Shown here: positions 11,277 through 41,110 of the stretch, in pieces
How the letters are laid out: each line of letters begins with the position of its first letter
Position numbering within the stretch: the first letter of the stretch is position 1
Origin: a virus
Taxonomy: Duplodnaviria > Caudoviricetes
DNA: 42,489 nucleotides
Reading direction: 5' to 3' (one strand)
IMG/VR virus record: IMGVR_UViG_3300037602_000024
Coordinates: 1 to 42,489 of that record
Notes under the pieces: generated by a model
Databases searched by the model: none
Told to the model about the DNA's origin: nothing
What the model saw: only the letters and a program-made list of their open reading frames with translations
Made by a program: the position numbers and the translations under genes

Positions 11277-11277
11277 G

Positions 11278-12540: not shown

Positions 12541-13403
12541 CGCAGGTCAATATTGGACGCTCCATCAATTACAGGGAGCCATGCGCAACGGCAATTCGGG
12601 TGAACGGGGATTATGCTGCGCGCTTCCTCCTTTGTGTAAACAGTCCCTTCCAGCCCTTCACAGATGGGGCAAACGGAAGCGTCTTGTGCCGTCGTAAACT
12701 CCACCTGCGCTTCAACGCCCGCGATCCCTGCTTCTTCGTAGGCGTTCAGCGATGCCTGGGCGTGAGCAGAAACGACTTCCGTCCGCGCGAGCGTCCGGGC
12801 GCGGGTGATGCCAATTTTGTCAACGCGCTCATTCATCCTCTGCGCGATCTTCTGCGGCCCAATGCCTTCCGCCAAGCCTTGCGCGAGAGCGCGGGAAATC
12901 TGCTGGTCCATTGCCTGCGTTATTCCCTCCAGCTGATCGTATGCCCGAATATAGGCGAGGCCAGCGCGGTCAACATGAATGGGTCGCCGGAAAGCAGCAT
13001 CAACCCATCGCTGCTCAACCTTCCCGCCCGATCGGCGGATATTGTTTGCCGCGGAAGCCACTCCCTTCTGATAGGCGGCTTCAACATATTTGGAAGTCCA
13101 TGCCTGGCGAGCCGCGGCGGCTTGCGGCGTGCCTTCGCGAACGGTCAGGATTTCATCACGCTGCATCTGCTTTAGCCAGGCCATGAAGGCTTCGATCTTC
13201 TTGTCAGTACGCTCGAATGCGAAGCGCTGGTTCAGCTTCAAGCCAAAGCCATCCTGCTTGATCACAACGTCGTTGATGCGCCCCTTGACGCGGCGAAAGC
13301 GCTTGTATGCCTCCGCTTCAAAGCGCCTCCTGATCAGCGTCGTCTTCGTTGGGTCCGTCCGGTTATCGGCCATCACCCGGATCGTTCCACAACTACACGC
13401 CAT
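12537..13403 (-). CDS. Head morphogenesis protein (MuF/SPP1 gp7 family)
   Basis: RARTLARTEV...D.SVCPIC...IPVHPNCRCAW signature. Confidence 0.9.
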   Translation of the reverse strand: MACSCGTIRVMADNRTDPTKTTLIRRRFEAEAYKRFRRVKGRINDVVIKQDGFGLKLNQRFAFERTDKKIEAFMAWLKQMQRDEILTVREGTPQAAAARQAWTSKYVEAAYQKGVASAANNIRRSGGKVEQRWVDAAFRRPIHVDRAGLAYIRAYDQLEGITQAMDQQISRALAQGLAEGIGPQKIAQRMNERVDKIGITRARTLARTEVVSAHAQASLNAYEEAGIAGVEAQVEFTTAQDASVCPICEGLEGTVYTKEEARSIIPVHPNCRCAWLPVIDGASNIDLR

Positions 13404-14703: not shown

Positions 14704-16124
14704 CACCAAGCTCCTGCTTTCTTCTTGGACGGCGCAAGGAAGGCGAATGCCCCCGATGCCGCGTCCACTTGATCCATGTAAGTTCCGTTCGGGAACACTT
14801 CGTGCTCATCGAGAAATTCTTGGTTCCAAGGCGCTCTCAACAGAAGGACGTTCTCGCCTTGGACCTGGGAGGCGTATGGATCGGCGCGAAGCTCCTTGTT
14901 GCCCGTCACCTTGTCCGCTTTCACTGACCATCCCGCTAGATTGCGGATCGTCGCCTCAGCGCTCTCCTTGCCGCCGCTCCCTGGCTCCTGCTCGATGTAA
15001 ACCTTGACAAGTTTGCCGTCAATTTCGGCAGTCTGCTTTATGCGCCGCTCCCGATCCAACGCGCCCCACTGCCCAACGCGCACGTCTTCGACGAAATAGC
15101 GCCCGTCCTTCAGCAAGCTCATCTTAACACCCGCGGTCCGCGCGCCACCGCCCGCTGTGCCTGCCTTGTCCCAATAGCGGACCGTCTTCTTGACCTGGCT
15201 GGCCGCGGGCGCGTGCTCAATGATCTGGAAGCGATCCACCGGGAACATTCCGCCCCCGCGCGGAGCCGGGCGTTGTTGCATCTGTCCCGCGTAGCCATAT
15301 TCACCAAGCACCTTCTTGTCGCGCTCAACGACTTCCCGCGGGAAGCGATCGGGGAACATAAGCTCACCAGGCTCCGCGCGCGGGTCTTCCCAGCCGATGG
15401 ACGTGTAACATTTGCGCTCCGGCTCGAACTCCATCGGGATCATCAAGTGCTCATAGCCGAATTCCTGCTCAATAACGAAGCCGGTTGGGTCATTCTGATG
15501 GAGGCGCTGCATAATGATGATAATGGCCGATGTCTTTGGATCATTGAGCCGAAGCGGGAGCGTTTCGCGCAAGACGCGGATGGCTGTTTCGCGCGTCGTC
15601 TCATAATGGGCCTTTTCCGGGGAAAGCGGATCGTCCCAAACCACGGTATGGCCACGACGCCCGGTCATCGACGCAACAGCGCACGCCTGCCGAAAGCCTC
15701 TGTGTTGGTTCTCGAAATACAGCTTCTCATTCTGGTCGCCTTGAAGCGCGATCGGCCACAAGTCCTGGTACCAGGGAGAAAGGATGAGCTCGCGCATAAG
15801 ACGGTTGTCGCGGATCGCCAGGCCTTGTTCGTGCGCCGCGCCAATGAACTTGTGCTTGGGATCGCCAAACGGCCCCCAGAGCCAGGAGGGGAACAGCACG
15901 TTGGCAACCGTCGATTTGCTGGAACCGGGAGGCACATTTATAACCAGCCGATTGATGTGGCCTTCCGCAACGGCCTGGAAGTGCTCTGCCATTGCGTCAA
16001 TGTGCCAATTGCCCTGAAACGGATCAGGGACAACACTGGGCCAAGCAGCAGGGATGTAGGCGCGGAAGTCGCGGCGGTAAAGCTCGCGCTTCGCAGCGCT
16101 AATCGTCGCTTGGTCCAGCTTCAT
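14703..16124 (-). CDS. terL: Terminase large subunit
   Basis: INVPPGSSKS Walker A, VVWDDP Walker B, MQRLH motif, YWDKA and DQVDA nuclease motifs. Confidence 0.95.
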   Translation of the reverse strand: MKLDQATISAAKRELYRRDFRAYIPAAWPSVVPDPFQGNWHIDAMAEHFQAVAEGHINRLVINVPPGSSKSTVANVLFPSWLWGPFGDPKHKFIGAAHEQGLAIRDNRLMRELILSPWYQDLWPIALQGDQNEKLYFENQHRGFRQACAVASMTGRRGHTVVWDDPLSPEKAHYETTRETAIRVLRETLPLRLNDPKTSAIIIIMQRLHQNDPTGFVIEQEFGYEHLMIPMEFEPERKCYTSIGWEDPRAEPGELMFPDRFPREVVERDKKVLGEYGYAGQMQQRPAPRGGGMFPVDRFQIIEHAPAASQVKKTVRYWDKAGTAGGGARTAGVKMSLLKDGRYFVEDVRVGQWGALDRERRIKQTAEIDGKLVKVYIEQEPGSGGKESAEATIRNLAGWSVKADKVTGNKELRADPYASQVQGENVLLLRAPWNQEFLDEHEVFPNGTYMDQVDAASGAFAFLAPSKKKAGAW

Positions 16125-16617
16125 CGGACAATGCTGCGATTTCGGCCAGAGCGGCGGTGGAGAGCTTCGTCACGTCGATCGCGGGCTTGGGCGTCATCGA
16201 GCCATCGTTGCTGGAGTGATCGATCCCATCCTTGAGTCCAAGGTCGCGCGCGATAATGTTTGGGTTCAAAAGGTCTGCGGCTGCGTGCTCAAACTTCTGG
16301 GTCCGGATCGTTTCTTCAATCATGCTTATGACAACTGCATATTCTTGCCGATTTCGGTACCCTTGATAGGTCTCTGCGCCAATGCCGAGAAAGAGCCGCA
16401 AGCCAGAGAGAGTGAACGCGCGCACCTTTGGAATTTCTTCCTGCGTCGCGACGCCTTGCCAAACGACCAGCTTGACTTCATACAGCGGGTTTTCCTCCGC
16501 CCACTGGAAATACTCCAGCGCCTTCTCCCAAAGGCTTTCCGGCGTCGGATAAGCGCGCGGCTTCCCAAGCGCCTTCTTCGCCAACTTCCAGTATTGATTG
16601 CCTTTCGGCGCAGCCAT
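16099..16617 (-). CDS. terS: Terminase small subunit (P22 gp3-like)
   Basis: MAAPKGNQYWK...PESLWEKALEYFQWAEENPL...LLNPNIIARDLGLKD. Confidence 0.9.
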   Translation of the reverse strand: MAAPKGNQYWKLAKKALGKPRAYPTPESLWEKALEYFQWAEENPLYEVKLVVWQGVATQEEIPKVRAFTLSGLRLFLGIGAETYQGYRNRQEYAVVISMIEETIRTQKFEHAAADLLNPNIIARDLGLKDGIDHSSNDGSMTPKPAIDVTKLSTAALAEIAALSDEAGPSDD

Positions 16618-17816: not shown

Positions 17817-20042
17817 TCACATCTCACTTTCCATCAGGGAAGACGCTTTAACCACGTGCTTCCGGATTTCGCCCAGCGGGTCTTCCGCCCGCTGGGCCAG
17901 GTCCATCAAAGCGTCGTTAATCAACGCATATTGCATGTGCCCGTGCACCTTGATCCGTTTGCTCCAACAGTGCAGGCCGCAATCCATCATCACGCGGCGG
18001 ATTTCGTAATCGCTATCATGAACGCGCCCCTGGACCGCGCTTTTGGCCCAGCCAACAACGTCCTTGATCAGAAGCGCGCCGGGCGTTCCCCGGTCCTTCA
18101 ACTGTTCCGCCAGCGCCGCCGCTTCCCGCTGGGCTTCGGACCGCGAGCCCTCAATGAGCTCCCGCTTCCTCTCCGTCATCGGCGCTCGCTCGCCTCGCGC
18201 CACATAGTCGCCATAGTTCTCCGCCCAATAGCGGACGATCGACAAGCCGCCGCCCTGCGCCCAGGAGCGAAGCTCTGCGAACTTCTTGCGCGGCCAAGGC
18301 ACTTCCGTCACTTCCGGATAGAACCAACGCCGGTCATCGTTCTCCATCTTGAGCGCGCGCATCGAATTCGAGCAGGCCACCACGTGGCACCAGTTGTCGA
18401 TCACGTACTGCCGCACGTACTTCTGATTAACCGTGATGTCCTGATCGGTGATAATCGACTTCAGCGCATGGTACGATTTCCAGGACGATCCGGAATAGAT
18501 TTCATTGACGATCGCGAGGCGCTTGTGGGCCACCCAGTCGTTGAAATCGCTCCCAATGTCCTTCTCGGACGGATAGCCCGCATTCTGCTCCCCGACCAGC
18601 GGCGCTAGGATATGCGCGCCCAGCGTCGTCTTGCCCATCCCCTGCCGTTCGCTCACCAGCAGCAGTCCATAGTCCATCCGGATTTCCGGGCGCGCAATAA
18701 GCGTAGCGCACCACCGCTCAACCTGCCGCCTTTCTTCCGGGTTGACGAAAAGATACCGCAGGAACTCCAGGAAGGGCTCCGGATCGCCGGGAATAGCCTT
18801 GATGGTCGTCGGAACATGAGTGTTGATCGCGTTCGCGCCGCGGTAATCGACCGTCAGTCCTTTGTAGTCCGGGCGGTAGCAGATGCGAGCCGTTCGCCCC
18901 TTGTACGCTTTTACCAGGAGCTTGGCCGTGTCGTTCACGTGGGAGAAGCCCGCAACCACCTTGTTGAAGACGCTCTCCGTCCGCATGATTTCGGGCATCT
19001 CCTTGCAGACGAAGGCGTCCGCTTCCTCCACATACGCCCACATTCCCTTGAAGCCCTCGCGAAGCGCCGCGACCGGGCGTCCCTTTCCATTCGGGTTCGG
19101 GATCATGTCGGTGGCCCAGGTGGCTGGACTTAGGAGCGCGCGCATAGACGGCCCAACATAAAAGCGCCGCCCTTCCGTCGTCTTGAACATCGTTTCCGGG
19201 AACGGGTCCGCAAGATCGAACGACACCGGGAAGCGGTCATTGAATTCAACGGAGAACGCCTTGATGCGGATCGCGCGGGATATGGATGCGATCGCTCTGC
19301 GCCCCGGCTCATCATTGTCCGCGACGATGTAGGCGCGTTCCACACCGTTCTTCGCCAGCACGCTCCAATCCGTCCTGTTTGGGTTCATCGCGCCGCCGAT
19401 CCACCCGACGTGCGCCGCCCCGGAAAGTTCCTCCCCCCAGGGATGTGCCGCCCGCGCGTCGCGCGCCTCCTTCGTCGCGCCCTCCACCAGCCACCGGCAA
19501 TAAGCTGCCGCCTTCGCGCCTTCGTGGATGAACACCGTGCGGTGAGCCGGTAGCTGATCGATGCCATAAAGCGGCAACTCGCCATCCGGCTCGCACATGC
19601 GCCAAACGTCATCATCCCAATACGTCCAAGGCACATAATTCTTGGCCAGCGCGCCGTCTTCGCCTTCCCTTTCGATCCGCACCTGAACCATGATAATCTC
19701 GCGGCCATCGACCGTCCGGAACTCGAATATGTCGCGCTCCGCCGCGCTCCTCATCATGGGAGGCGGATTGATGATCCGGGAGAGGCGCTTGATCCGCGGG
19801 AACTCGACGCGAGCCCATGCGTCCATGATCGTCGCCTGCTCTAACTCCGTCGGGGAGTGCTCCAGCGAAGAACAGCTGATTTCACCCGTCGCGCTGAAGC
19901 GGATGACCGCAACATCGTTCCAGTAATTGCCGATCGTCTCGCGCACAACCGCCGTCTTCAGCGATCTTGGTTCAGCGCCCACGCGGGCCAGGTAGTCGCG
20001 GACTGCCGTTATGTCTGTAAGGGAGCTAATTCGCTCAGTCAT
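17817..20042 (-). CDS. Primase-helicase (TOPRIM-like N-terminus, SF3/D5-like ATPase C-terminus)
   Basis: FIHEGAKAA and VADNDEPG TOPRIM-like motifs; QGMGKTT Walker A, IVNE Walker B, CSN motif C, DDRRW. Confidence 0.85.
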   Translation of the reverse strand: MTERISSLTDITAVRDYLARVGAEPRSLKTAVVRETIGNYWNDVAVIRFSATGEISCSSLEHSPTELEQATIMDAWARVEFPRIKRLSRIINPPPMMRSAAERDIFEFRTVDGREIIMVQVRIEREGEDGALAKNYVPWTYWDDDVWRMCEPDGELPLYGIDQLPAHRTVFIHEGAKAAAYCRWLVEGATKEARDARAAHPWGEELSGAAHVGWIGGAMNPNRTDWSVLAKNGVERAYIVADNDEPGRRAIASISRAIRIKAFSVEFNDRFPVSFDLADPFPETMFKTTEGRRFYVGPSMRALLSPATWATDMIPNPNGKGRPVAALREGFKGMWAYVEEADAFVCKEMPEIMRTESVFNKVVAGFSHVNDTAKLLVKAYKGRTARICYRPDYKGLTVDYRGANAINTHVPTTIKAIPGDPEPFLEFLRYLFVNPEERRQVERWCATLIARPEIRMDYGLLLVSERQGMGKTTLGAHILAPLVGEQNAGYPSEKDIGSDFNDWVAHKRLAIVNEIYSGSSWKSYHALKSIITDQDITVNQKYVRQYVIDNWCHVVACSNSMRALKMENDDRRWFYPEVTEVPWPRKKFAELRSWAQGGGLSIVRYWAENYGDYVARGERAPMTERKRELIEGSRSEAQREAAALAEQLKDRGTPGALLIKDVVGWAKSAVQGRVHDSDYEIRRVMMDCGLHCWSKRIKVHGHMQYALINDALMDLAQRAEDPLGEIRKHVVKASSLMESEM

Positions 20043-22897
20043 GATTTTGCCTCATCAAGATCGCCGATGTATCGCGCTTGTTTGATGGAAAGAATTCTAA
20101 AGTCTCCATCCATCTCGAACATCTTTCCTTTTAGTGCCCAGATAGACTTGCCTGGTCTGCCTTTGTCGACGATTTGCCTGCCCGCGCGATCATAGTTGAA
20201 GCGGTTGACTTTCGCGAGCACAGTGCCAGTGTCGTCCATCACTCTCAGCTGAAGAAATTCTTCTTTTCCGTCAGCAATTCTTTGTCCTCCTCGCTTTGCA
20301 ACATTCACTTCTTCATTTTCGTTTCGCGGGTTTATCTTGATAGGAACGGCCCAGACCATGACATCGTCTCCTCGCGCTTCAGAGATTGGCGTTGGTTGGG
20401 TGACGATGTTTCGCGCGAGAGGGTCTGGCATTATTTTCGCTATTGCGTCTCGCACAGGCCACAAGCTGTCGATGTCCGTTTTCGGGTCTTTCAGCAGTTT
20501 CTCTGTCCGCGGCGGCAAGGGCTCTCCCCGCTTCCGCGCGCCGATTATGCTGTTGACCAACTTTGGGCCAATCCCTTTGACATTCGACAGCGGCCCAATC
20601 AGGACGCGCTTGCCATTCCGGACGCCCGCTGTCCACACGTCGGTGGAAAGCTCCGGATCAACCGGAACATAATCGTAACCTTCCGAGGCCATCTCGCGCA
20701 GCAGTTCAATTTGCCGCTGGGGATCGGTTTCGTGGGTCAATGTGGCTGCGGCGAACTCAAACGGAAAATGAGCCTTGAGCCAGCAGCACCAATAGCTGAT
20801 ATAGCCGTAAGCGACCGCGTGGGACTTGTTAAACGCCCATGAGCCGAAGGTGTTGATCTGGTCCCAAATCTCGGCTGCAGTCGCCCTCTCCACCCCATGC
20901 GCTGAAGCGCCCTGGACAAATCTTTGCTTGAACTGCTCAAAGAATTCATTCCCGAGCCGTCGTGACATCGCCTTTCTGATCAAGCTTGTGTCTTCCCAGG
21001 AGAGCCCGCCCATTTCCCGAACGACCCTCATGACCTGCTCCTGATAGACCACGACGCCGTAGGTTTCCTTCGTGAGCTCACCGAGAAGCGGGTGAAGCGC
21101 AGCAGGAGCCTCTCCCCCGCTGCGCCTTCTTGCCCACTGGCCCGAGCCTCCTGTGGCCAGTGGGCCGGGTCTGGCGAGAGCAGAGATCGCGACTATGTCG
21201 TCGAAGCGATCAACCTTTATCTGGCCGGTGAGCGATTGCAAGGCATTCCCGTTCCACTGGAAGATGCCAGAGAACTCTTTGCGGTTTAGAACGTCGAAGG
21301 CTGCTTGGTCGTCGATCGGAACGGCCTGAAGCTCCTCCATCGTCATCCCCGCCATCTCCAGCGCGTCTTCGAAGACGGAAAGCTGCGTCAGCCCCAAGGC
21401 GTCGATTTTGAGAAGGTTCAGCGGCCCTTCCGCGTCGTACTTATCGCACATGGCTGCGCCGGTCCGATGGTCAACGGCCACATATTCTTCGATCGCCCGG
21501 TCAGCGACCACAACGCCCGCGGCGTGCTGGCTGTAGTGGCGCGGGTGGCCTTCCATCCGGGTGGCAATGATGAATTCAGGAAATTCCTCAAGAAGCTCCC
21601 GCCCCGCCGAAGAGCCATTCAGCGCGTCTTCCAGCGTATCGGTCGCGCGTGAGTCTGCCGAAGAACGATCAACCAGCGCGTCCGCGATCTTCTCCGCTCG
21701 CCACCGCGGCACGTCTAGCGCTGCCGCGGCTTCCGCCATCGCGCTCCGCGCCTTGAACATTGCGACGGTGCCGAGACGCGCCACCCGCTCCGGACCATAC
21801 ACCTTCCGCATGTAGTCGAAGACCATGGAGCGCTGCTGATCGCTGAAATCAATATCGATGTCGGGAAGGTCCGCGCGGTTGATGTCGATGAACCGCTCAA
21901 AGATCAGGCCGTGCGGGATCGGGTCAACCGTCGTGATCCGGAGAAGATAGCACACCAGCGATCCGCAGGAAGAACCGCGCGCCGGACCAACGGCCATCTT
22001 CTTCCTGGCCCACTGGCAAACGTCCGCCACCAAATAGAAGTAGTCCTCAAACTCCTTTTCCGCGATCAGCGTGAGCTCGCGATCCAGCCGGGCGCTGTAG
22101 ATTGGATCGTCCAAATTGACGCCAAGCTCCTTCGCGCCGTCCTCACACATCTCGCGCAAGGGCTTTGGGCGCGGCGGGCGCACCAACTCCGCGCGCTTCA
22201 GCCGGGCGTTGCAGGAAGCGAGCATGTCCACCGAATTCTGCTGGGCTTCGACGCGCTCTCCTTCCGTCAGGCCGGTGCGAGCCGTCGCGGCCAACCACTC
22301 TCCCGCGTCCAAAATGTGCTGAGGATACGATTGCGTGGAAGCGCCGCGCCCGCAAAGGACTTCATAGAAAGCACGATCCTCCGCGGTAGGATAGACATTG
22401 TCACTCACCGCTGCGAACGGCAAGCCTTTCTCCTTCGCCACAGCGATGTGACCGCGAACGCTGGCCGGAGAAAGCCCAAAAAACAGACCCTCCTGTGGCT
22501 CGATAAGGTCTAGCTTACATCGGTGTCCCGCGATCTTGAAGACGCCACTAGCGGCCAGCGCCTGGGCGTAGGTGATGATCGGCTGATAGCGGAATTGCTG
22601 GGTGGCGAGGGAAATGAGACGGTTGATTGGCGCAACGTCATCGATTGCCAAGAACGTCCAGAAGTCGGTGGCTGGCTTCTTTTCTTCGTAGCTCTCCGCG
22701 ACGGCTAGCTCCACGCCGAACACCGGCTTCATGCCTTCCTTCTCACAGAGCGCATTCCACCGGACCCAGCCGAAGGTTGAGGCGCGATCGGTGATTGGTG
22801 CGGCGGGATAGCCGCACGCCTTGAGGCGCGCCATCACTTCCGGGAGCGCGCCCGCGGCTGCCCGGAAGCTGTAGCCAGTTCGGACGCGGGCGGTCAT
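20039..22897 (-). CDS. dnaE: DNA polymerase III alpha-like (C-family) polymerase
   Basis: GPARGSSCGSLVCYLLRITTVDP, FERF, PDIDIDF, HAAGVVV, LLKIDALGL, VYQEQVM, AFNKSHAVAY. Confidence 0.95.
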   Translation of the reverse strand: MTARVRTGYSFRAAAGALPEVMARLKACGYPAAPITDRASTFGWVRWNALCEKEGMKPVFGVELAVAESYEEKKPATDFWTFLAIDDVAPINRLISLATQQFRYQPIITYAQALAASGVFKIAGHRCKLDLIEPQEGLFFGLSPASVRGHIAVAKEKGLPFAAVSDNVYPTAEDRAFYEVLCGRGASTQSYPQHILDAGEWLAATARTGLTEGERVEAQQNSVDMLASCNARLKRAELVRPPRPKPLREMCEDGAKELGVNLDDPIYSARLDRELTLIAEKEFEDYFYLVADVCQWARKKMAVGPARGSSCGSLVCYLLRITTVDPIPHGLIFERFIDINRADLPDIDIDFSDQQRSMVFDYMRKVYGPERVARLGTVAMFKARSAMAEAAAALDVPRWRAEKIADALVDRSSADSRATDTLEDALNGSSAGRELLEEFPEFIIATRMEGHPRHYSQHAAGVVVADRAIEEYVAVDHRTGAAMCDKYDAEGPLNLLKIDALGLTQLSVFEDALEMAGMTMEELQAVPIDDQAAFDVLNRKEFSGIFQWNGNALQSLTGQIKVDRFDDIVAISALARPGPLATGGSGQWARRRSGGEAPAALHPLLGELTKETYGVVVYQEQVMRVVREMGGLSWEDTSLIRKAMSRRLGNEFFEQFKQRFVQGASAHGVERATAAEIWDQINTFGSWAFNKSHAVAYGYISYWCCWLKAHFPFEFAAATLTHETDPQRQIELLREMASEGYDYVPVDPELSTDVWTAGVRNGKRVLIGPLSNVKGIGPKLVNSIIGARKRGEPLPPRTEKLLKDPKTDIDSLWPVRDAIAKIMPDPLARNIVTQPTPISEARGDDVMVWAVPIKINPRNENEEVNVAKRGGQRIADGKEEFLQLRVMDDTGTVLAKVNRFNYDRAGRQIVDKGRPGKSIWALKGKMFEMDGDFRILSIKQARYIGDLDEAKS

Positions 22898-23417: not shown

Positions 23418-23786
23418 TCAATCGAAGGACTTGTTCATGGCGAGGCGGTGCGGCGCGCCGATCTTTCGCGAAGTGGCGTTGAACTTGGCGACGATTGCAA
23501 GCTCCAAATTGATCCCTTCCCGCTGTGCGATAAGGTCCAGATACAGGAACACGTCCGCGATTTCATCTTCCAGCGCCTCGCGCAATTCTTCCTCCGTCTC
23601 CTTGTTTCCGGGGATACCGTCGCGCGCCCGGTTGAGCTTCTTGACGATATTGGCAAGCTCCCCGACTTCGCCGCACAGCGCCGTGGTCCAGTCGCTGAGC
23701 GACCAATCCTCCAGCTTGTGATTGAAGCCATTCTCCGCTTCGGAGCGGGAGCGGTTGGTGAGAGAGATAGCTTTGAATGCGGGCAT
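23418..23786 (-). CDS. MazG-like nucleotide pyrophosphohydrolase
   Basis: LCGEVGELANIVKK...LEDEIADVFLYL (EXXE...EXXD); GGAGG RBS before ATG 23786. Confidence 0.85.
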   Translation of the reverse strand: MPAFKAISLTNRSRSEAENGFNHKLEDWSLSDWTTALCGEVGELANIVKKLNRARDGIPGNKETEEELREALEDEIADVFLYLDLIAQREGINLELAIVAKFNATSRKIGAPHRLAMNKSFD

Positions 23787-23797
23787 GATCGCCTCCG

Positions 23798-24259
23798 TTA
23801 GATGGTCTTTTTCCATTCGTCCAGCGCGCGAAGCGTGACGCTTTCGGGAACGTCGTGGCCCTGGGTATGGGCCTGCGCGAACCACAGCTTGATTTCGTCA
23901 AGCTCCTTCCGGGCGTTCGCCACTTCGACCATGAGCCGGTGCTTTTCGATCCGCTCCTTGAGCGCTGTGCAGCGCCGCAGGCCGTTGGCCGCCTTCATTC
24001 CTTCGATCGTCGCTTCCAGGGTTGCGATCTTCTGCGCCTGGGCTTCGATCCGGACGGCCTGTTCATCCTCCCAGGCTTCCGGCAGCGGCGGCTGCGGGTC
24101 AAGGGATGTCCTGTCGCTAACGAAGGAGAGGCTGCCCCCATCAACGATGCAGAGGAAGTAATCGCAACCGCTCCGCGCAATATGGGCCATCACCCATGTC
24201 TTTCCCTTCCCCTCCACATACGAAGGGAAGGGGCTCTTGTAAGGCGTGATATTGTTCAT
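23798..24259 (-). CDS. Hypothetical protein with a C-terminal coiled coil
   Basis: TGATG overlap with the exonuclease stop. Confidence 0.65.
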   Translation of the reverse strand: MNNITPYKSPFPSYVEGKGKTWVMAHIARSGCDYFLCIVDGGSLSFVSDRTSLDPQPPLPEAWEDEQAVRIEAQAQKIATLEATIEGMKAANGLRRCTALKERIEKHRLMVEVANARKELDEIKLWFAQAHTQGHDVPESVTLRALDEWKKTI

Positions 24260-24801
24260 CAGATGATTCCTCTCTGGTTAAGTTCGGCCCAGCAGCGGGT
24301 CAGGGCTTCAGTGTCCGTCCGCGCCCGATGAGCGCCAGAAAACGGAGTGCCGAAAAGGTGTTCATGGAGCGCGCTAAGGTTGAGGCGATAGCCTTTGAGC
24401 CATTCCGTCGCCTCCACCGTGCAGATGCCTTCCGGCGGTTCGCTAAATTCCGCGTTGGCACGTCGGAACTCATTGCGCATCATGTCCAGATCGAAGGACA
24501 GGTTATGGGCCACGACGACGGAAGCCACGCCGAAAATGTCGTTGATCCGCTCCACGTATTCGGAGAAGGGCGGCTTTCCTTCCACATCTTCCGGCTTTAT
24601 GCCTGTGATCTTGGTGATTTCCTCCGTGATCGGGACAGGCGGCTTGCACAGGAATTCGAGCTCGCCGACGATCGATCCATCATCCTTGACCAGCAGGCCG
24701 CAGAACTCGATGACGTGCGGCTGCTTTTCGAGCGGCCTGGCCGAATTCTTGACCAGGCCTGTCGTTTCCGTGTCGAAGACGATTGCGAGCCGGTCACTCA
24801 T
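24259..24801 (-). CDS. DEDDh 3'-5' exonuclease (Pol III epsilon-like)
   Basis: FDTETTGL, VAHNLSFD, AHRARTD motifs. Confidence 0.92.
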   Translation of the reverse strand: MSDRLAIVFDTETTGLVKNSARPLEKQPHVIEFCGLLVKDDGSIVGELEFLCKPPVPITEEITKITGIKPEDVEGKPPFSEYVERINDIFGVASVVVAHNLSFDLDMMRNEFRRANAEFSEPPEGICTVEATEWLKGYRLNLSALHEHLFGTPFSGAHRARTDTEALTRCWAELNQRGII

Positions 24802-25138
24802 CCTTGTCTCCAAACGTCTGGTGCCACAATTCATTGATCTTTGCCTTTTGGCTCGCCTCAACGTCGATTTCCGCGAGCATAGCAGCATACACCGCCAGAT
24901 CGTCCAGACTGTCTGCGTGGCCGCCCTTCTCCCACGCGTTGGCGTATCGGGTGAGCTTGACGACGATCAGCATCAGAATGTGGAACCGGGCATGATCCAT
25001 CTCGCTCCGGAGGGAAACGCCCTCCGGAAACAGAGCGGTCATCACCGGCCCAACCTTGCGCCAGTTCTCGCCATACGTCGGGTTGCGATCCCGAAAGATG
25101 GCCGCGGCTTTTTCCAGCCGCCATGCGACATCAGCCAT
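24794..25138 (-). CDS. All-helical nucleotide-modification-associated protein (DUF6378/Nmad1-like; NTP-pyrophosphatase-like)
   Basis: AAAIFRDRNPTYG...VVKLTRY...HADSLDDLAVYAAML pattern. Confidence 0.6.
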   Translation of the reverse strand: MADVAWRLEKAAAIFRDRNPTYGENWRKVGPVMTALFPEGVSLRSEMDHARFHILMLIVVKLTRYANAWEKGGHADSLDDLAVYAAMLAEIDVEASQKAKINELWHQTFGDKDE

Positions 25139-25622
25139 TGCTCGCCTCCCGCTCCCGACGCCAGATGAACTTGATCGACTGGCCGCCGAACAGGTCATAG
25201 ATTTCATAGTGATATGTCCGCCCGTTCTCAACCAAGTAGGAGTTGGTGTGGGAGAGGGTTGACATCACCTGGCGCAAGCTCATCCGGCTATCGGCGTGCT
25301 TCCAATGGGCGGGCGTTTCGTTCTTTTCCATGTGAATGCCGATGTGGGAGAGGAACGGCAGACCGGTCTTGAAATCCGGCTTCGTCATCAGCCAGTGCGG
25401 CCCTTGCAGGTAGGTGAGGATTTCGAGCTCAATGCCGAGATCGTAGTTGAAGCGGAGATGGGCCTTTGACTCCATCCGCTTCCCGCCGTCAACCCAGACC
25501 GCGCCGGTGACTTCGTCTTCAACCCACTTCGCGCCCGCCAATCCTAGCTCAACCATCACATCGTAGGCCTGCGCTTCGTCGTGCGCGTAAAATGCAATCT
25601 GATCCATTTTCATGTGCTTCAT
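25131..25622 (-). CDS. VOC/glyoxalase-superfamily protein (epimerase/isomerase-like)
   Basis: MDQIAF...IELEILTY..GPHW...LSHIGIH; ATGA overlap with the SDR stop. Confidence 0.65.
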   Translation of the reverse strand: MKHMKMDQIAFYAHDEAQAYDVMVELGLAGAKWVEDEVTGAVWVDGGKRMESKAHLRFNYDLGIELEILTYLQGPHWLMTKPDFKTGLPFLSHIGIHMEKNETPAHWKHADSRMSLRQVMSTLSHTNSYLVENGRTYHYEIYDLFGGQSIKFIWRREREASNG

Positions 25623-26311
25623 GCTCCATAAGGAAGAATGCACCCGGCCAGGTACTTGTGGCGCTCGGGTGTTGAAAGAAGAAAGGCAAGGAATTCTGCC
25701 ACCGCGTCCGGGTCCGTTTCCTCTCCCGCGGGAAGGGCGTTCAGTTGGTATTGCGCCGCTTCCTCCGGCGTCCAGCCGCGAAGCTCGCAAACGCGGCCTT
25801 CGATATAGTTGGACATGCCGGTGCCGCGCAGCTTATTCGGGGATATGCCGAAAACAGTGATGTCGTGCGTCTTCTTGAGCTCGCGCGCCATCTGCAGCGT
25901 CAGGATATGGGCCGCGCCCTTGCTGGCGTTGTAGGCGGCGCTATGCGTCATCGGCATGTGGCTGGCGTTCGAGACGATATTGGCGACGGTGGCCGGACGC
26001 TTCATGCGGCTGGCGTTAATGAGCTCCCTGACCACCAGCCATGGCGCGCGGGCGTTGACGTTCATCAGCCGGTCCCATTCGTTAATCGGGATTTCTTCCA
26101 GCCAGTCGATGTAGTTGACGCCCGCGCAGTTCACGACGACATCGACGCCCAGCTGGCAGTTTTCTGTCGCAGACCAGACATTGACCTCACTCGCCAAGTT
26201 CACGCCGGTTTCCAGCGACCATCCTTCAACGGACCATCCGTCATCGACCAGCCTTTGGTAAATCCTCTGGCCCAAGCCGGACGTGTGTCCAGTAACGATA
26301 GCGTGCTTCAT
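25619..26311 (-). CDS. Short-chain dehydrogenase/reductase
   Basis: IVTGHTSGLG, VNCAG, NIVS and YNASK catalytic motifs. Confidence 0.92.
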   Translation of the reverse strand: MKHAIVTGHTSGLGQRIYQRLVDDGWSVEGWSLETGVNLASEVNVWSATENCQLGVDVVVNCAGVNYIDWLEEIPINEWDRLMNVNARAPWLVVRELINASRMKRPATVANIVSNASHMPMTHSAAYNASKGAAHILTLQMARELKKTHDITVFGISPNKLRGTGMSNYIEGRVCELRGWTPEEAAQYQLNALPAGEETDPDAVAEFLAFLLSTPERHKYLAGCILPYGA

Positions 26312-26312
26312 C

Positions 26313-26798
26313 TCAGTATCCTCCGTGCCGGACTTGCCAGCAGTTAAAGCCAAGCTCCCGCCAGCGCTCAACCATTCCGTCGCGATCCTCCAGGATGAAG
26401 GCGACGGCGCTTTTCACGTCCACTTCTTCGTGGCCCAGATGCCGCTGCTGAGCGGCGTGCCATTCAGAAAGAAGGCGCGGTTTCAGGTCGCGATCCGGCG
26501 TGTAATCCCAGTCTGGACGCATCAGGAGCGCATCGATGTAGCCGGACAGGGCGTGCTCGCGCAGCCACTTCTCCGTGAGCCCTCTGTAGGCTTCATTCCG
26601 CCCGGTCAGGATGATCACCCGGTAATCGATCGGCACGATGGCAGCGATGAGCTCAGCCACGTCTTCGTGTACGGGATCATCCGCGCCCATCACGTGAAAA
26701 TCGTGCCACTGTCCGATTTGGGCCAGGTGGACACGGTAACGGGCGTCGGAAAGCGTTCCATCAAGGTCCACCACAATCGTCTTTCGCATTGCGCTCAT
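26313..26798 (-). CDS. HAD phosphatase (polynucleotide kinase-phosphatase C-terminal-like)
   Basis: VVDLDGTL, LTGR, LLMRP, K, EDR motifs. Confidence 0.88.
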   Translation of the reverse strand: MSAMRKTIVVDLDGTLSDARYRVHLAQIGQWHDFHVMGADDPVHEDVAELIAAIVPIDYRVIILTGRNEAYRGLTEKWLREHALSGYIDALLMRPDWDYTPDRDLKPRLLSEWHAAQQRHLGHEEVDVKSAVAFILEDRDGMVERWRELGFNCWQVRHGGY

Positions 26799-27583
26799 GA
26801 GAATGCCCTCAACTCATCGACCAGCTTTACCAGCCGGGTGCGTTCGTCTTGGCTGATCGCGCCTTCTTCCGAAGCCTTGATGATGGCAGCTTCAAGGTCG
26901 CCTGCCGCCTTGTCGAAATCCCTGTCCAGAAACATCGTGGTCCATGGGTGGACTTCCCGGACACATTCAAGCATGGCATTGGCCACATCGCGGTATTCCC
27001 CCTGTGTCCGGGAGGAAGCGCGCTTGCGAGCCGTTTCTGCCAGCGTCCGAAGGTTGAAGTGGGCCACGATGTTGGTGTGGATGTTCGTCGGCAGAACGCC
27101 GCGGGCGTCTTCGATTGCCGCTCCGGCTTTGATCAGGCTGTTGTATGCCGCGGCGATGTCGTCCATCGTTCGCGCATAGATCGCTGCCTTTTCTCCCGGC
27201 TCTTCACGCCCGGTGTCAAGGTCGATGCTCCAGTCATTTTCGATTGACGGCCCTGTGTGATAGGTCCAGCCATTGACGTTCAGAACGCGCATCGTTTGCT
27301 GGGCGTAAGAGCCAACGCGCGTGCGAACGAATTGGTGAGTGAAAGCGCGGGATACGCCGTTGATCAGGAAGGTGTAGCCGACGAACTCCCAGGAGCTTGG
27401 GATGGTGCGCGCCATGTAGCGGAGCTCTTCTTCAACCTTCGCCCAAGGCCAAGCGGCGATTTCGTCCAGCAGCCCAGGCCGCATCTCCAGCCGCGTCTGC
27501 TTCGTGAACACCAGGACGTTGGCAGCGTGCCGGGCGGGATCGAACGCTCCCGCGCCGGTGTAGTCGATCAGTTGCACTTTCAT
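26795..27583 (-). CDS. thyX: ThyX-fold (flavin-dependent thymidylate synthase-like) enzyme with altered motifs
   Basis: GVSRAFTHQFVRTRVGSYAQQTMR, EDARGVLP, NLRTL, RASSRTQGEYR. Confidence 0.85.
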   Translation of the reverse strand: MKVQLIDYTGAGAFDPARHAANVLVFTKQTRLEMRPGLLDEIAAWPWAKVEEELRYMARTIPSSWEFVGYTFLINGVSRAFTHQFVRTRVGSYAQQTMRVLNVNGWTYHTGPSIENDWSIDLDTGREEPGEKAAIYARTMDDIAAAYNSLIKAGAAIEDARGVLPTNIHTNIVAHFNLRTLAETARKRASSRTQGEYRDVANAMLECVREVHPWTTMFLDRDFDKAAGDLEAAIIKASEEGAISQDERTRLVKLVDELRAFS

Positions 27584-27588
27584 CTGGT

Positions 27589-28515
27589 TCAGACTTTCTT
27601 GCTGTGATCGTAGAAGGCAGAGCCATTCGCGATCAGTTTCTGGATCACGCGAACGTCGTTGACGACGTCATCGAGAAGAAGCCCAGGACGCCACGTTGCG
27701 AAGCGCCCAAGCGAGTAAATATTGTGCTCCTGCGAGGCCCATAGAATGAAGGCGCGGCGAACGTCTTCGTCAATCGGGAGAATTTTCGCATACTTCTGTT
27801 CGCTCTCCCGCGCTTCTCCGGTCAGAAGGTCCAAGGGAAGGCCAAGAAGGTCCATGGCGGAACCAACCACCTGATCCGCTTTCACGGGCGCATTTCCATA
27901 GCACTCGACCGTCAACAGATTTCCGGTGAGCGATATGCGGGACGCTCGCTTGATTGGGTTGGGGACATACAGCGAGCAGTAAGCGTCCACGTCCGAAAGT
28001 TCGCATGAGACATTGACGCCCGGAACGGAGCGGAAGACAGCCTTATCCCGATGCGACCAACCTAGCTTCTTCATCAGTGCGTCCATCGGGATCGTGGATA
28101 TGACCGGAAGGTCGCCTAAGCGCGAGCCCGGCCAATTATCAAATGTTTGGCCAACCATGATGTGGCCTTCAACCATCTCCGCCATCCGCGGGATAAGATC
28201 GGGCGGCGCGATATATCTGTCAACCGCCAAGCCGTGCGCTGAAGTGATTGAGCGCACGGTTGCTGTCCCATTCGTCTTTAGGGAATAGGACAAGGCGTCC
28301 GCGATCGGGTTGCGCCACGGCTGAACCGCCTTCATCGCGGTCACCTTCCGGAAGGGGATGCCGAGCGTGTCGCCGACAATCGACGATCGGAAGCGGAGAA
28401 CTGCCGAATGGTTATTGGGGATTTCCGGCTGCGCCTCAAAGATAGCGCCGCACTCCCTACGGAGCATCGCGCCCGCCAGCAAACCGGCCATCCCCGCGCC
28501 AACAATGATGGTCAT
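27589..28515 (-). CDS. FAD/NAD(P)-binding oxidoreductase (UDP-galactopyranose mutase-like outline)
   Basis: IIVGAGMAG Rossmann motif; VISTIP; C-terminal IYSLGRFATW..LLLDDVV. Confidence 0.75.
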   Translation of the reverse strand: MTIIVGAGMAGLLAGAMLRRECGAIFEAQPEIPNNHSAVLRFRSSIVGDTLGIPFRKVTAMKAVQPWRNPIADALSYSLKTNGTATVRSITSAHGLAVDRYIAPPDLIPRMAEMVEGHIMVGQTFDNWPGSRLGDLPVISTIPMDALMKKLGWSHRDKAVFRSVPGVNVSCELSDVDAYCSLYVPNPIKRASRISLTGNLLTVECYGNAPVKADQVVGSAMDLLGLPLDLLTGEARESEQKYAKILPIDEDVRRAFILWASQEHNIYSLGRFATWRPGLLLDDVVNDVRVIQKLIANGSAFYDHSKKV

Positions 28516-32434: not shown

Positions 32435-32839
32435 ATGAACACCCGGTGGACGGACCAAGAGAAAGAAACGCTGCGGCAGATGTGGAATGCCGATGAGCCG
32501 ATCGCCGCAATCATTTGCGCGCTGGATCGGAACAACAATCAGATCGTCGGCCAGGCTTACCGAATGAACCTGCCGAGGCGGAACGCCATCAAAGGCAAAG
32601 GGCATCTCCCCAGGAAGGCAGACGTCCCTCGAAAGAAGGCTTGGAAGCCTCCGCACTATGTTGCGCCGCTGGTCGTGCGCTCCTGCCAGTGGCCGCATGG
32701 CGATCCGACCAGCCCGGACTTCCATTTCTGCGGCGAAGAAGTTGTGGAAGGGAAGCCTTATTGCGACAAACACTGTGCCGTCGCCTACACCAAGTATGAG
32801 ACAGCCGCGGACGCTCAGCGCGCGGTGGAGGAAGAATGA
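32435..32839 (+). CDS. gcrA: GcrA-family cell-cycle regulator homologue
   Basis: WTDQEKETLRQMW...NQIVGQAYRMNL N-terminal domain; CQWPHGDPTSPDFHFCG...PYCDKHCAVAY C-terminal domain. Confidence 0.9.
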   Translation: MNTRWTDQEKETLRQMWNADEPIAAIICALDRNNNQIVGQAYRMNLPRRNAIKGKGHLPRKADVPRKKAWKPPHYVAPLVVRSCQWPHGDPTSPDFHFCGEEVVEGKPYCDKHCAVAYTKYETAADAQRAVEEE

Positions 32840-37018: not shown

Positions 37019-39913
37019 CTACGCCTTGCTAAACGATACGACGATGGCTATTGGGCGGTAGCACGGCCTGAACCACGACACGGTGAAATCGCCAGTTGGC
37101 CCCGTCGTGTCCGGGTAATAATAGCCGAAATATGCCGACGAAAGCGGCCCAAGGGAAACGCTGCCCGCAGCGACTTCCCCGTCCATCGCGGGCGTCGGTG
37201 TCCATGCCTGATTGGGCTGGCGATCCGCGGAGAAGAGCAGGACAACACTTTCGTCCGTTGTATCCGTTCCAGCGATGCCCGTCCAGGGGTTCCCGTCATT
37301 CTGGAGCGTGCCGCTGAGGCCCGGCGTGCCGTCCCGCTGATCGACGTTCTTCAGGACAACCAGGATGCCCTGGCCGTGGCTGAACACTGGCGGTGAGGCG
37401 TCCAGGTGTAGGGTAGGCGACGGCTCATTGGCCCCGGCCACCTTCCACCACAGGAAGCCCTCCGTGGCGTACTGGCCGGAAGTCGATTGGATCGGTCCCA
37501 CCGCGTTCCAGCTAGTGTCCTGATCGTCTTCCCCGAACCAAGTGCCCGCGCCGTTGGTCGCCTGATCGATGCCCGCGAAGAACACCAGCACGTCGCCCGG
37601 CTCATGAATAGGCAGCGCCGCCAATGTATCCGTTTCGTTGATTAGGTAGGTGGCGTGCATGATGTAGGAGGCGTTCCCGCCCGCGCCCGGCACGCCGGAA
37701 AGGAAGTTAACTTCTTCCACCGGCAGACCGTTATATGTTGTAACGGCAGGATCGGAAATCAACACCATGCCGCGGATCGCGTCACCATTGTATTGCCCCG
37801 TCGCATCGACCAAACGTGCCGCGTTGATCGCCTGCAAGTCCTGGAGCCCCAGACCGCGCGGATTATCGTCCAAGCCGCCAAGGAGCGTCAGGCCGTGGTT
37901 CCATGCCCCGTTCGATCCAGCCGGGAAGCTGATATCAGCATAGGCCAGCGTGCCGGTGACGCCGATCGCGCGGAAGGCTTCGTTGGCGTCGATAGTAAGT
38001 TGCCGCGTCCATGGCGCATACTGGTCCATTTCTGGATGGTTGTAGACTGAAAGCCCGCCTTCGTAGGCGTGGAACATCAACGGCTCCGCCTTGTACGGCT
38101 GGAACACCGCCCGCGCGTAGCTGACGCTCGTGTTGATCCGCGCCACGTATTCTTCCAGACTCTGGCGCACGCTCGCCTCAACCTGAACAACGTCCGTCCA
38201 GTCGGAAACGGGGAGCGATGGATTGGCGTCACCGTAGTAGGTGCCGAAAGACCAGCACTTGATCGGGTTTGTGGCTGGGTTCAGCCATTCGGCCAGCAGG
38301 GCATCCTCCAGATCGTCCGGCGCGCTATCCACCCAAGGCTCAACCTGGATATAGGCCTGGAGGCTGGGCACATAGCCGGGCTGCTCCTCCGCGACCCAGA
38401 TCACCTTCGACATATCCCCGCCGAAGTTTGTGCGCATCCGGTCGTAAAGGATCATGTCCTGGCGCGCTTTCCAGACGCGCCCGATGTTGGAAGAAGTGCC
38501 GTAAATGGTTCCGGTGCCCCATTTAGCAACGCCTTGGTCTATGAACCAATCGGCGCTGTTCTGCCCGCTTTCAAAAAAGATTTCGTTGCCCAGCGCGATC
38601 GCCATTTCTTCAATGTCGCCCGCGTCCAACGCCGCTTTCGCGTGCGCGCAGAATGCATCGAACGCCGCCAGCGAGATATTCGGGTGCAGGTTGATCCACG
38701 GGCGCAAGTTCCAGTACGCCGCCGCGTCGATAATTGCCTCATAAGGCATAGCGTGTTCGGTCGGCACGTAGAGATAAGGCGTGCCGGCAGGAGAGCCGAT
38801 GGAGCCGGACGTGCTGGCGATGATTTCGCCGGTCCCGTCGAAAGTTCCCACCACGTCGTCAATATTTATGTAGCCGGCGCCTTGGTTCAATTCCTCCACC
38901 GTGGCCGACGCGCCGCTGCTGGCCTGCGTGATCGTCTCACCAACGGTTACTGTCGGGAAGTTTTGGCCTTGCGGCAGCGGTATGCGCCAGCGGTTGTTCA
39001 GTATATCGAATGGATCAGTGAAGCTCTCGTGCCAGGAAAGGTTCTGTGTGCTCCAGGCGTTCGCGGGGAAGGTGCTGTGATCGCGGTTGGCCTTCGTCCC
39101 CTTCATCGGACGCCACCAGACCGGGCGGTTGTCGATAGCTAGCGGGTAATAGAAGCCCTCGACCAGATCGCGGTTCAAATGCGCCGTTCCGTTACTGGCA
39201 ACATAGTCGGCAAGGTAGCGCTCATTCACCAAAGCAATCTCGGTGCCCTTGTCCACTAAGCTCTTTATGTGGACGCGGATATAGCCGGAGGAAGCCAGCG
39301 GCGGGATCGTTATTTCATATTGCGTCTTTGTCGTGCGGCCATCCAGAACTACGTTGCTTGCGTATGTCCTATTGATCCACCCGCCGCCGATGTCAACCTG
39401 AATAACGTCTATGGTAAAAGCGCCATCCGTGATAAAGTAGAATTTTCCGGAATAAGGCCCGGTGGACATATCCGGCCAACGAAGGCTGTCAATTAGAATA
39501 TAGCCGCTGCCCGGCGTAGTATCCGGCCAGCCGTTTCCATCCACCGTTCCACCGTTGACGCCGCGAACGACTTGCGCTTGGCGCAGTATATTGTCGATGT
39601 GATATCCGGGATTATTCCCTTGGTGCGGCCAATGGTTGAAGTTCATGCCTAATTCGTAGGCGGGCAACGGATCGCCTCCGGACTGAACAGCGACGCCCTT
39701 CACGCCCGGCCCTGGGGGCCACGTGTTGACGTTCCGCACACCAATCACAGGAACGTCGTTGTGATTGCCGGTAGTCCCCGCGGGAAGGATCGCCCCGCCC
39801 AAGACAGGCTCGCCATTATAAAGCGTTTGGCCTCCGCCCCCTCCACCAGTCACAGGCCGATTGCCGAAGGGAGAGCGCGGACCAGCCATGGATGAGTGGA
39901 ATGGGTTCCGCAT
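37019..39913 (-). CDS. Large virion fibre/spike with a glycoside-hydrolase-like TIM-barrel domain
   Basis: N-terminal AGPRSPFG.R...GGGGGG peptide; PWINL, ALGNEIF and HAYEGG resemble clan GH-A acid/base and nucleophile motifs; C-terminal beta domain. Confidence 0.65.
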   Translation of the reverse strand: MRNPFHSSMAGPRSPFGNRPVTGGGGGGQTLYNGEPVLGGAILPAGTTGNHNDVPVIGVRNVNTWPPGPGVKGVAVQSGGDPLPAYELGMNFNHWPHQGNNPGYHIDNILRQAQVVRGVNGGTVDGNGWPDTTPGSGYILIDSLRWPDMSTGPYSGKFYFITDGAFTIDVIQVDIGGGWINRTYASNVVLDGRTTKTQYEITIPPLASSGYIRVHIKSLVDKGTEIALVNERYLADYVASNGTAHLNRDLVEGFYYPLAIDNRPVWWRPMKGTKANRDHSTFPANAWSTQNLSWHESFTDPFDILNNRWRIPLPQGQNFPTVTVGETITQASSGASATVEELNQGAGYINIDDVVGTFDGTGEIIASTSGSIGSPAGTPYLYVPTEHAMPYEAIIDAAAYWNLRPWINLHPNISLAAFDAFCAHAKAALDAGDIEEMAIALGNEIFFESGQNSADWFIDQGVAKWGTGTIYGTSSNIGRVWKARQDMILYDRMRTNFGGDMSKVIWVAEEQPGYVPSLQAYIQVEPWVDSAPDDLEDALLAEWLNPATNPIKCWSFGTYYGDANPSLPVSDWTDVVQVEASVRQSLEEYVARINTSVSYARAVFQPYKAEPLMFHAYEGGLSVYNHPEMDQYAPWTRQLTIDANEAFRAIGVTGTLAYADISFPAGSNGAWNHGLTLLGGLDDNPRGLGLQDLQAINAARLVDATGQYNGDAIRGMVLISDPAVTTYNGLPVEEVNFLSGVPGAGGNASYIMHATYLINETDTLAALPIHEPGDVLVFFAGIDQATNGAGTWFGEDDQDTSWNAVGPIQSTSGQYATEGFLWWKVAGANEPSPTLHLDASPPVFSHGQGILVVLKNVDQRDGTPGLSGTLQNDGNPWTGIAGTDTTDESVVLLFSADRQPNQAWTPTPAMDGEVAAGSVSLGPLSSAYFGYYYPDTTGPTGDFTVSWFRPCYRPIAIVVSFSKA

Positions 39914-39915
39914 TG

Positions 39916-40897: not shown

Positions 40898-41110
40898 TTA
40901 AACTTCTCCTGTCTTGCGCTGAGCGGCGTTTGCCTCAAGGTCGTCACCTTTTGCGTTGGTCATCTCGGCGGCTTGTATCTCCGCTGCGCCTAACTGGATA
41001 GCCTCAGCGGTTCTCTTGAACTTAATCGCCTGCTCCAGCGCTGCGCCAGGAATGTTAGCTGCCTCAAGTAATTGGAGAGCCAATGCTGCAAATTCTTTAC
41101 TTTCCATCAT
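40898..41110 (-). CDS. Small helical protein after the tailspike (possible fibre chaperone)
   Basis: TGATG overlap with the tailspike stop. Confidence 0.6.
   Translation of the reverse strand: MMESKEFAALALQLLEAANIPGAALEQAIKFKRTAEAIQLGAAEIQAAEMTNAKGDDLEANAAQRKTGEV

Follow-up and report, generated by a model that had tools for sequence, protein, structure and literature searches.

A phage gene cassette built around a variant ThyX and its probable role in thymidine modification

What a phage gains from a ThyX-fold enzyme packed among a flavoprotein, a phosphatase and enzymes of carbohydrate-tailoring type is the question raised by six genes at positions 24794-28515 of the virus record IMGVR_UViG_3300037602_000024 (Duplodnaviria; Caudoviricetes), whose full 42,489 nucleotides are referred to here as the window. 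The initial annotation, made from sequence alone, had proposed a pathway of DNA base modification in which the ThyX-fold enzyme would attach a carbon unit to pyrimidine C5 before replication. From the results described below, the cassette very probably serves thymidine (T) modification, and the more specific reading, that it makes a polyol-tailed T by a pre-replicative, ThyX-initiated route, is given a probability of about 0.5.

Gene content of the cassette and the altered ThyX

The six genes are intact minus-strand open reading frames (ORFs) as tightly packed as had been described, with junctions of -4, +5, -4, +1, -4, -8 and -8 nt from the preceding gp33-like gene to the following exonuclease gene (Exo), and their GC and GC3 contents resemble those of the DnaE and primase genes of the window. 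From likely starts at 28515, 27583, 26798, 26311, 25622 and 25138 they encode a FAD-binding protein of 308 aa (27589..28515), a ThyX-fold variant of 262 aa (26795..27583), a HAD phosphatase of 161 aa (26313..26798), a classical SDR of 230 aa (25619..26311), a VOC-fold protein of 163 aa (25131..25622) and a helical DUF6378 protein of 114 aa (24794..25138). The identities first given to the FAD, ThyX, HAD, SDR and VOC genes were supported by Pfam and structure-model matches; the label 'NTP-PPase-like' given to the last gene was not, as it matches DUF6378 (6.1e-6, slightly below the cut-off).

The ThyX variant scores 122.9 bits (1.8e-35) with PF02511 and 103.9 with TIGR02170, against a cut-off of 87.9. 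In the window protein I61, T88 and V100 occupy the positions of H53, H79 and Y91 of the T. maritima enzyme (from the 4gtf alignment for H53), and the RHRx7S motif is replaced by RTRx7T, while R87, R89, R99, R161 and R188 are retained. The T. maritima numbering takes in a 12-residue tag offset, and on it the position of H178 is presumably occupied by Arg in the window protein. These changes are systematic: at the equivalent positions none of 83 ThyX homologs has H53, the motif His (H79) or Y91, whereas the equivalents of R78, R80, R147 and R174, among which R78, R147 and R174 are the dUMP arginines, are invariant (83/83). According to the text of PMC11940539 and PMC8316439, H53 is the folate-stacking residue, mutation of Y91 slows the reaction 100-1000-fold, and free formaldehyde taken up on flavin N5 lets ThyX methylate dUMP without folate. 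Judged by its sequence, the variant is thus altered at the carbon-donor side with the dUMP side kept, which is what a larger aldehyde donor would need, and it is predicted to be a C5-alkylating enzyme acting on dUMP.

A housekeeping role was also considered, in which the variant is a drifted dTMP synthase working with a flavin partner and phosphatases, the modification known from Pbunavirus being encoded elsewhere. The TIGR02170 score and the conserved dUMP arginines agree with this, as do the common placement of ThyX among replication genes and the lack of a restriction signal at the level of the window. However, the systematic loss of H53 and Y91, the recurrent insertion of SDR plus VOC, methyltransferase and carbamoyltransferase genes with no role in dTMP synthesis, and the methyltransferase/mass match described below argue against mere dTMP supply, and a virus-only partner with the fold of UDP-galactopyranose mutase (UGM) is present in every scored locus. 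We therefore regard a housekeeping role as quite unlikely.

This partner, the FAD-binding protein (phrog_4828), had no match in Pfam, NCBIfam or a profile search of PDB sequences. Its structure model (pLDDT 91) gave UGM as the best Foldseek match (VIA Z 21.9, rmsd 3.4, 299 residues aligned), the next family being protoporphyrinogen oxidase (Z 18.7). The GAGMAG motif stands at residue 6 and GRFATWRP at residue 270, so that the GRFATW motif, read before as a mutase-like C-terminus, is located at residues 270-275. The protein has 2638 homolog clusters, with viral clusters as the nearest ones in the Atlas, and Pseudomonas phages contribute 291 of the 361 cultured phage records in which it is found. 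On the evidence of the model, it likely supplies or activates a sugar donor.

Among the remaining proteins, the phosphatase is of the PNKP-phosphatase type (DLDGT motif; PF25109, HAD_PNKP, 6.5e-20) and is predicted to remove the terminal phosphate of the tail. The SDR (adh_short, 1.1e-26) has intact TGxxxGxG, NCAG and YxxxK motifs and is predicted to be an optional tailoring enzyme, with which the VOC protein travels. The latter, found in 53 phage records, had no Pfam match and no significant match in a profile search of solved-structure sequences. Its model (pLDDT 93.5) matched best the putative methylmalonyl-CoA epimerase (MMCE) 3gm5 (E 2.6e-6, TM 0.68), with the paired beta-alpha-beta-beta-beta fold and the conserved Gln/Glu/His of the MMCE-like VOC superfamily; D7/Q8, E65/E67, H93/H97 and K151 are conserved, and from the sequence Lys seems to stand at the fourth ligand position. 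The DUF6378 protein is fused to HAD in Pbunavirus and Wifcevirus. In Cronobacter phage Ss1 (L087:9710-10387) this HAD-DUF6378 slot is filled by a fusion of HAD with DUF3310, the T7 gp1.7 nucleotide-kinase family. This replacement, seen in Ss1 only, makes a nucleotide kinase a fair guess for DUF6378, which is a candidate nucleotide kinase or pyrophosphatase.

Distribution of the cassette and the modified thymidine of its carriers

An alignment search of IMG/VR was surveyed through its best 80 of 313 stretches, many of them near-copies, of which 68 reach Exo or DnaE. ThyX was present in all 68 loci, HAD in 67, DUF6378 in 65, SDR in 24 and VOC in 19. The four-gene core alone occurs in 43 loci and all six genes in 19; five loci have SDR without VOC (three of these also without DUF6378) and one is without HAD, whereas VOC was never seen without SDR. 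The SDR plus VOC pair changes state 11 times on a 67-row ThyX tree, at least 8 of these changes being forced by well-supported branches, against a shuffled mean of 17.5. Thus, FAD, ThyX variant, HAD and DUF6378 beside Exo/DnaE are a widespread phage module, and SDR plus VOC is a swappable unit, an optional add-on to the core that is not peculiar to the window phage. Both the co-occurrence of the genes in other phages and the view of SDR and VOC as an elaboration of a simpler block were therefore borne out.

The two anchoring neighbours of the module, conserved across the loci, are minus-strand genes in the window: Exo, a DEDDh 3'-5' exonuclease, adjoins the cassette (24259..24801; PF00929, 2.4e-25), and the phage DnaE polymerase (20039..22897; PF07733, PF17657, PF02811) is predicted to incorporate the modified nucleotide. 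The same core is found in F8, 14-1 and LBL3, and all six genes in the cultured Wifcevirus Bas98; the link with PB1-like Pseudomonas phages, already proposed, was supported by the order FAD-ThyX-HAD-DUF6378-Exo-DnaE in Pbunavirus F8 and 14-1. Dispersed counterparts, including a divergent flavoprotein, occur in Mycobacterium phage PBI1 and Microbacterium phage Ajin. The 206-kb Rhizobium phage RHph_TM2_3B (L086) has the window-type ThyX, the flavoprotein, HAD-DUF6378 and a large A-family polymerase, so the core is not tied to DnaE; no ThyX of the SP-15 gp130 type was found in it. A scan of bacterial genomes (38 of 64 parts) gave at least 4 loci, all on contigs of metagenome-assembled genomes with a phage-type cassette, and no cellular pathway among the matches listed.

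Other genes inserted in the cassette encode carbamoyltransferase, methyltransferases, YfbR-like HD proteins, dGTP diphosphohydrolase and Nmad5, which by their sequences are hydroxyl-tailoring or pool enzymes. A NodU/CmcH-type carbamoyltransferase gene follows HAD in five loci (among them L028:10023-11753, L031:6249-8057, L037:11293-13122 and L038:10052-11797), and its product would carbamoylate the tail. Cassette genes of 270-290 aa without a Pfam match look glycosyltransferase-like by eye (L054:10493-11335, L069:10172-11014, L079:10743-13652, L036:10476-12109), that of L079 being accompanied by a Methyltransf_24 gene. A YfbR-like HD nucleotidase gene stands immediately before the flavoprotein gene at L025:7495-7995 and in 10 further loci, and in the cassette carrier L040 a second, divergent Thy1-family gene (12005-12850) lies between Exo and DnaE.

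A modified T has been measured only in relatives of the window phage, namely F8 and 14-1, which carry the core without SDR and VOC; the expectation of a sugar-type modified pyrimidine in carriers thus agrees with what is reported for these two. The text of the preprint (bioRxiv 10.1101/2025.03.31.646159) lists a T derivative for each phage, with a mass of 362 Da for F8 and of 390 Da for 14-1, puts it at about a quarter of T, and interprets the F8 base as a tetritol and the 14-1 base as a cyclic pentose derivative; no genes are named in that text. Our literature search turned up no paper that links genes to the Pbunavirus base or mentions tetrahydroxypentyl-uracil in phage DNA. The formula mass of 5-(tetrahydroxypentyl)-dU, the product of reductive ThyX chemistry on a pentose aldehyde, is 362.13 and equals the nominal mass of the F8 derivative.

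The cassette proteins of F8 and 14-1 are 85-98% identical, and their bases differ by 28 Da, that is, 2xCH2, dimethyl-362 having a formula mass of 390.16. Five stretches of at least 100 bp in 14-1 have no F8 match, and one of them comprises a whole ORF for a 166-aa methyltransferase-like protein, far from the cassette (L160:6707-7309; NC_011703) and with no counterpart anywhere in the F8, LBL3, Bas98 or window record. The presence of this gene in 14-1 and its absence from F8 would explain the 28-Da gap, and the methyltransferase is a candidate cause of the difference between 362 and 390 Da. Its product has only a weak NCBIfam methyltransferase match and is annotated as a methyltransferase in GenBank; proteins encoded by inserts in the cassette of viral loci and of PBI1 share 27-47% identity with it, and the majority of these match Methyltransf_11. 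A profile of this family (two unrelated ORFs were dropped from the alignment beforehand, and four of the seven viral-locus matches were training sequences) placed it between ThyX and Exo or directly after DUF6378 in 6 of the 80 loci, upstream in one more, and also in the PBI1 cluster. The family occurs in 131 phage records, and the 60 listed are all Pseudomonas phages (65-67 kb), Salmonella phage PCSE1, or Mycobacterium or Gordonia phages, all from groups in which the ThyX variant occurs too; the 14-1 gene itself is in 58 Pseudomonas phage records, compared with 291 that have the flavoprotein. This match of gene and mass, in two phages only, connects the cassette with a measured base more closely than anything else found.

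The same masses can be read in another way. A one-carbon ThyX could stop at the exocyclic methylene or at 5-hydroxymethyl-dUMP, with a polyol or furanose from the UGM-like flavoprotein then attached through oxygen (5-hydroxymethyluracil (hmU)-O-tetritol for 362, hmU-O-pentoside for 390) and SDR and VOC shaping the sugar. The formulas are identical to those of the carbon-linked forms and agree with the wording of the preprint text; moreover, the UGM fold makes NDP-furanoses and, in the text of PMC13326640, UGM serves DNA glycosylation in RL38J1, while in that of PMC8989533 every characterised T hypermodification passes through hmU. Nevertheless, scans with Pfam, PHROGs and NCBIfam, covering 33, 30 and 22 window proteins respectively (several proteins being unassigned), revealed no DNA glycosyltransferase or methyltransferase, as the initial annotation had noticed, and a ThyA-fold dUMP hydroxymethylase, hmU-DNA kinase or aGPT-Pplase was not named in these general scans, no dedicated profile search having been made. 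The folate histidine is lost in 83/83 homologs, and near-identical cassettes (FAD 97%, ThyX 94%) would have to deliver both C4 and C5 sugars, whereas a methyltransferase gives +28 directly. An oxygen-linked product thus seems rather doubtful.

The proposed route and the evidence on each side

In the route that we favour, a T analogue with a sugar-alcohol tail would be built at the nucleotide stage and inserted by the phage DnaE, where it would block host restriction enzymes. The UGM-fold flavoprotein would free or isomerise a pentose donor by flavin N5-C1 chemistry, and the ThyX variant, devoid of its folate site, would load the pentose aldehyde on flavin N5 as canonical ThyX loads formaldehyde, join it to C5 of dUMP and reduce it to 5-(2,3,4,5-tetrahydroxypentyl)-dUMP (nucleoside 362 Da). 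HAD may then trim the terminal phosphate, and DUF6378 may phosphorylate the bulky monophosphate or edit the dTTP/dUTP pool. Optional tailoring of the tail would follow, by the methyltransferase in 14-1 (+28) and by carbamoyltransferase in other phages. In the window, SDR and VOC could oxidise a hydroxyl and then either epimerise (still 362) or eliminate (346 or 330), so that its tail would, by analogy, be of the deoxy or epimeric kind (346, 330 or 362 Da).

In its boldest form, which we put forward tentatively, a virus-only branch of ThyX would have replaced folate by a sugar aldehyde and would link C5 of dUMP to a pentose through a C-C bond, a new flavin reaction, with swappable tailoring; the same chemistry in a sister branch would account for the SP-15 base. 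With equal caution, the tailoring genes (SDR plus VOC, methyl-, carbamoyl- and glycosyltransferases) could then produce a range of related polyol-T bases in phages, numbering in the hundreds, that infect Proteobacteria and Actinobacteria.

The sites protected in F8 bear on where the tail is attached. According to the preprint text (bioRxiv 10.1101/2025.03.31.646159), protection follows TG sites, with five enzymes cutting and five not; in the F8 genome TG makes up 27% of T, as does TT. On this basis, the cassette could make a donor or a precursor base, with an unassigned phage protein adding or removing the tail on DNA at TG. Such an arrangement fits the TG-linked protection and the substitution of about 25% reported in that text, and several conserved hypothetical Pbunavirus genes have no Pfam match. 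Against it, the window ORFs common to F8, 14-1 and Bas98 are DnaE, Exo, DUF6378, ThyX, FAD, gp33, gp34 and the helicase, with no further shared enzyme at E 1e-5, and the SP-15 base is reported as formed before DNA synthesis. Installation on DNA is thus considered unlikely, and the TG bias could arise from polymerase-exonuclease partitioning.

Signals of restriction were sought in genome sequences by comparing palindromes with their expected numbers (ten dinucleotide classes, uncorrected; three control phages). TG-containing palindromes were less avoided in 20 of 22 carriers (9 of 22 at p<0.05, uncorrected), and one of the three controls leans the same way; the strongest contrast of the set was that of Ss1, 1.16 vs 0.64. 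A similar signal at TT-containing palindromes was set aside, as T7 and T1 show the same escape at these sites. The window strongly avoids GGATCC (0 vs 16 expected), GGCGCC (2 vs 51), CGGCCG (2 vs 32) and GCCGGC (4 vs 40), which suggests that restriction still acts on its phage at what we term T-free sites; GAATTC is in excess (20 vs 7.9 expected). Bas98 has 36 EcoRI sites, which contain no TG, and EcoRI cuts F8; in the text on Bas98, EcoP1_I is given as the one exception to the insensitivity of this phage to the restriction-modification systems tested. Six-gene carriers either modify a wider context or have a separate anti-restriction function, as the text of a 2026 preprint suggests for 14-1.

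Several results weigh against the ThyX-initiated, pre-replicative route. The TG specificity of F8 is more typical of DNA-acting enzymes than of a pool nucleotide, and a TG-only base leaves the insensitivity of Bas98 unexplained despite its 36 EcoRI sites. In the window itself, TG-containing palindromes stand at 0.83 of expected vs 0.69 for the others (p=0.155), and the control phage phiKMV leans likewise. At nominal mass, O-linked hmU isomers match both 362 and 390, and the fragmentation-based reading in the text of bioRxiv 10.1101/2025.03.31.646159 is of a cyclic aldopentose derivative in 14-1, with no dimethyl ether. The methyl explanation of the 28-Da gap needs one methyltransferase acting twice, its link to genotype rests on two phages, and there are four other 14-1-only stretches (tail fibre, gp71 and two short ones). 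TIGR02170, whose cut-off is passed, is an equivalog family, and motif S88 is still Ser in 24 of the 83 homologs. No nucleotide kinase was recognisable in the cassette, and homology between DUF6378 and T7 gp1.7 was not detected by hhalign (probability 0.2-0.3%, on single sequences only). In the literature we found no nucleoside analysis for Wifcevirus or any six-gene carrier. The relation to SP-15-type phages is also distant: the FAD, VOC and DUF6378 profiles found no match in SP-15, YerA41 and Carin-5 (for VOC, with no positive control among the five records searched), and the ThyX proteins of these phages form a separate branch, with SDRs only weakly similar to that of the window.

The product might also be a diffusible nucleotide or sugar, acting as an anti-defence decoy or an inhibitor of a host enzyme and not incorporated in DNA. 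The cassette enzyme set resembles nucleoside-antibiotic tailoring genes, and the want of a recognised kinase would suit such a product, yet the position against Exo/DnaE is constant and modified T was measured in virion DNA of carriers, which makes it highly improbable.

Beyond the cassette, a minus-strand gene for a MazG-like nucleotide pyrophosphohydrolase of pool editing (23418..23885; Pfam) is inconstant, with 7 matches in 86 loci. A GcrA-like regulator gene lies at 32435-32839 of the window, and GcrA genes also occur in the relatives L032, L052 and L063; by their sequences, they hint at an alphaproteobacterial host for the window phage. Structural genes occupy 37019-42489 and 1-16617 and include proteins of 964, 236 and 447 aa without assignment, an F5/8-domain tail protein and a Linocin_M18-like capsid. 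Matches to them were few in the relatives tested, which places the replication-modification block on another virion module than in Pbunavirus. The record has a 127-nt terminal repeat, and its CheckV figure is 76%.

Hypermodification of phage T is already known; the route described here is possibly new. Pbunaviruses are much-used therapy phages, whose modified T blocks restriction enzymes and also exposes them to END nucleases. A candidate pathway can now be named for their base, to which the preprint text assigns no gene, and presence of the methyltransferase predicts the 390- rather than the 362-type (58 vs 291 flavoprotein-bearing Pseudomonas records). Cultured and directly testable carriers of all six genes are available in the BASEL phages Bas98-101 of E. 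coli K-12. If the C-C route were true, it would be new to flavin enzymology, would probably explain the origin of SP-15 dihydroxypentyluracil, a puzzle since the 1970s, and would open enzymatic access to C5-functionalised dNTPs together with a polymerase that accepts them.

Comparison with known systems

With respect to canonical ThyX/FDTS (T. maritima TM0449), the window variant shares the fold, the dUMP/FAD arginines and Pfam and TIGR scores above cut-off, but differs by the replacement of H53, H79 and Y91 by I, T and V and by its constant UGM-fold partner. The latter has the UGM/amine-oxidase flavoprotein fold, the FAD Rossmann start and the GR-x-A-x-W end of UGM, but is 10-16% identical to it, 50-200 aa shorter and without a family-level (GLF) sequence match.

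Pbunavirus F8 and 14-1 have FAD (32% identical), ThyX (37%), HAD, DUF6378, Exo and DnaE in the same order as the window; SDR and VOC are absent there, HAD and DUF6378 are fused, and the 14-1 methyltransferase is absent from the window. The six-gene form is that of Wifcevirus Bas98-101, with Carpasina, Serratia phage MTx and Pantoea phage Kyle as further carriers by SDR/VOC matches, although in Wifcevirus the fused HAD-DUF6378 comes before SDR and the genomes are those of 68-kb myoviruses, compared with the 42-kb window genome, whose structural genes were mostly unmatched in the relatives tested.

The analogy with SP-15 drawn at the outset was strengthened, as an analogy and not as one shared system. 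SP-15, YerA41 and Carin-5 each encode a related, divergent Thy1-family protein of 390-410 aa together with SDRs (SP-15 gp129-130 are adjacent). In SP-15 a nucleoside 2-deoxyribosyltransferase, a possible source of the aldehyde, lies three genes before ThyX, and a reference title in PMC5977210 states that a ribose label enters its base. That the window and SP-15 have the same system was rejected, given the unmatched FAD, VOC and DUF6378 profiles; likewise, the long ThyX of the SP-15 gp130 type and the large A-family polymerase had no match in the window genome. These three phages thus differ by their separate ThyX branch, their A-family polymerase and tails that are further glycosylated and phosphorylated. 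The likeness is that of a polyol tail at C5 of T, as in 5-(4,5-dihydroxypentyl)uracil of SP-15, next to a divergent Thy1-family enzyme and SDR. It extends to the masses: the linkers given in the text of PMC12686479, PMC13697223 and PMC5977210 are +104 (346) for YerA41 and +88 (330) for SP-15 and Carin-5, so that F8, at 362, stands one oxygen above YerA41 and two above SP-15 and Carin-5.

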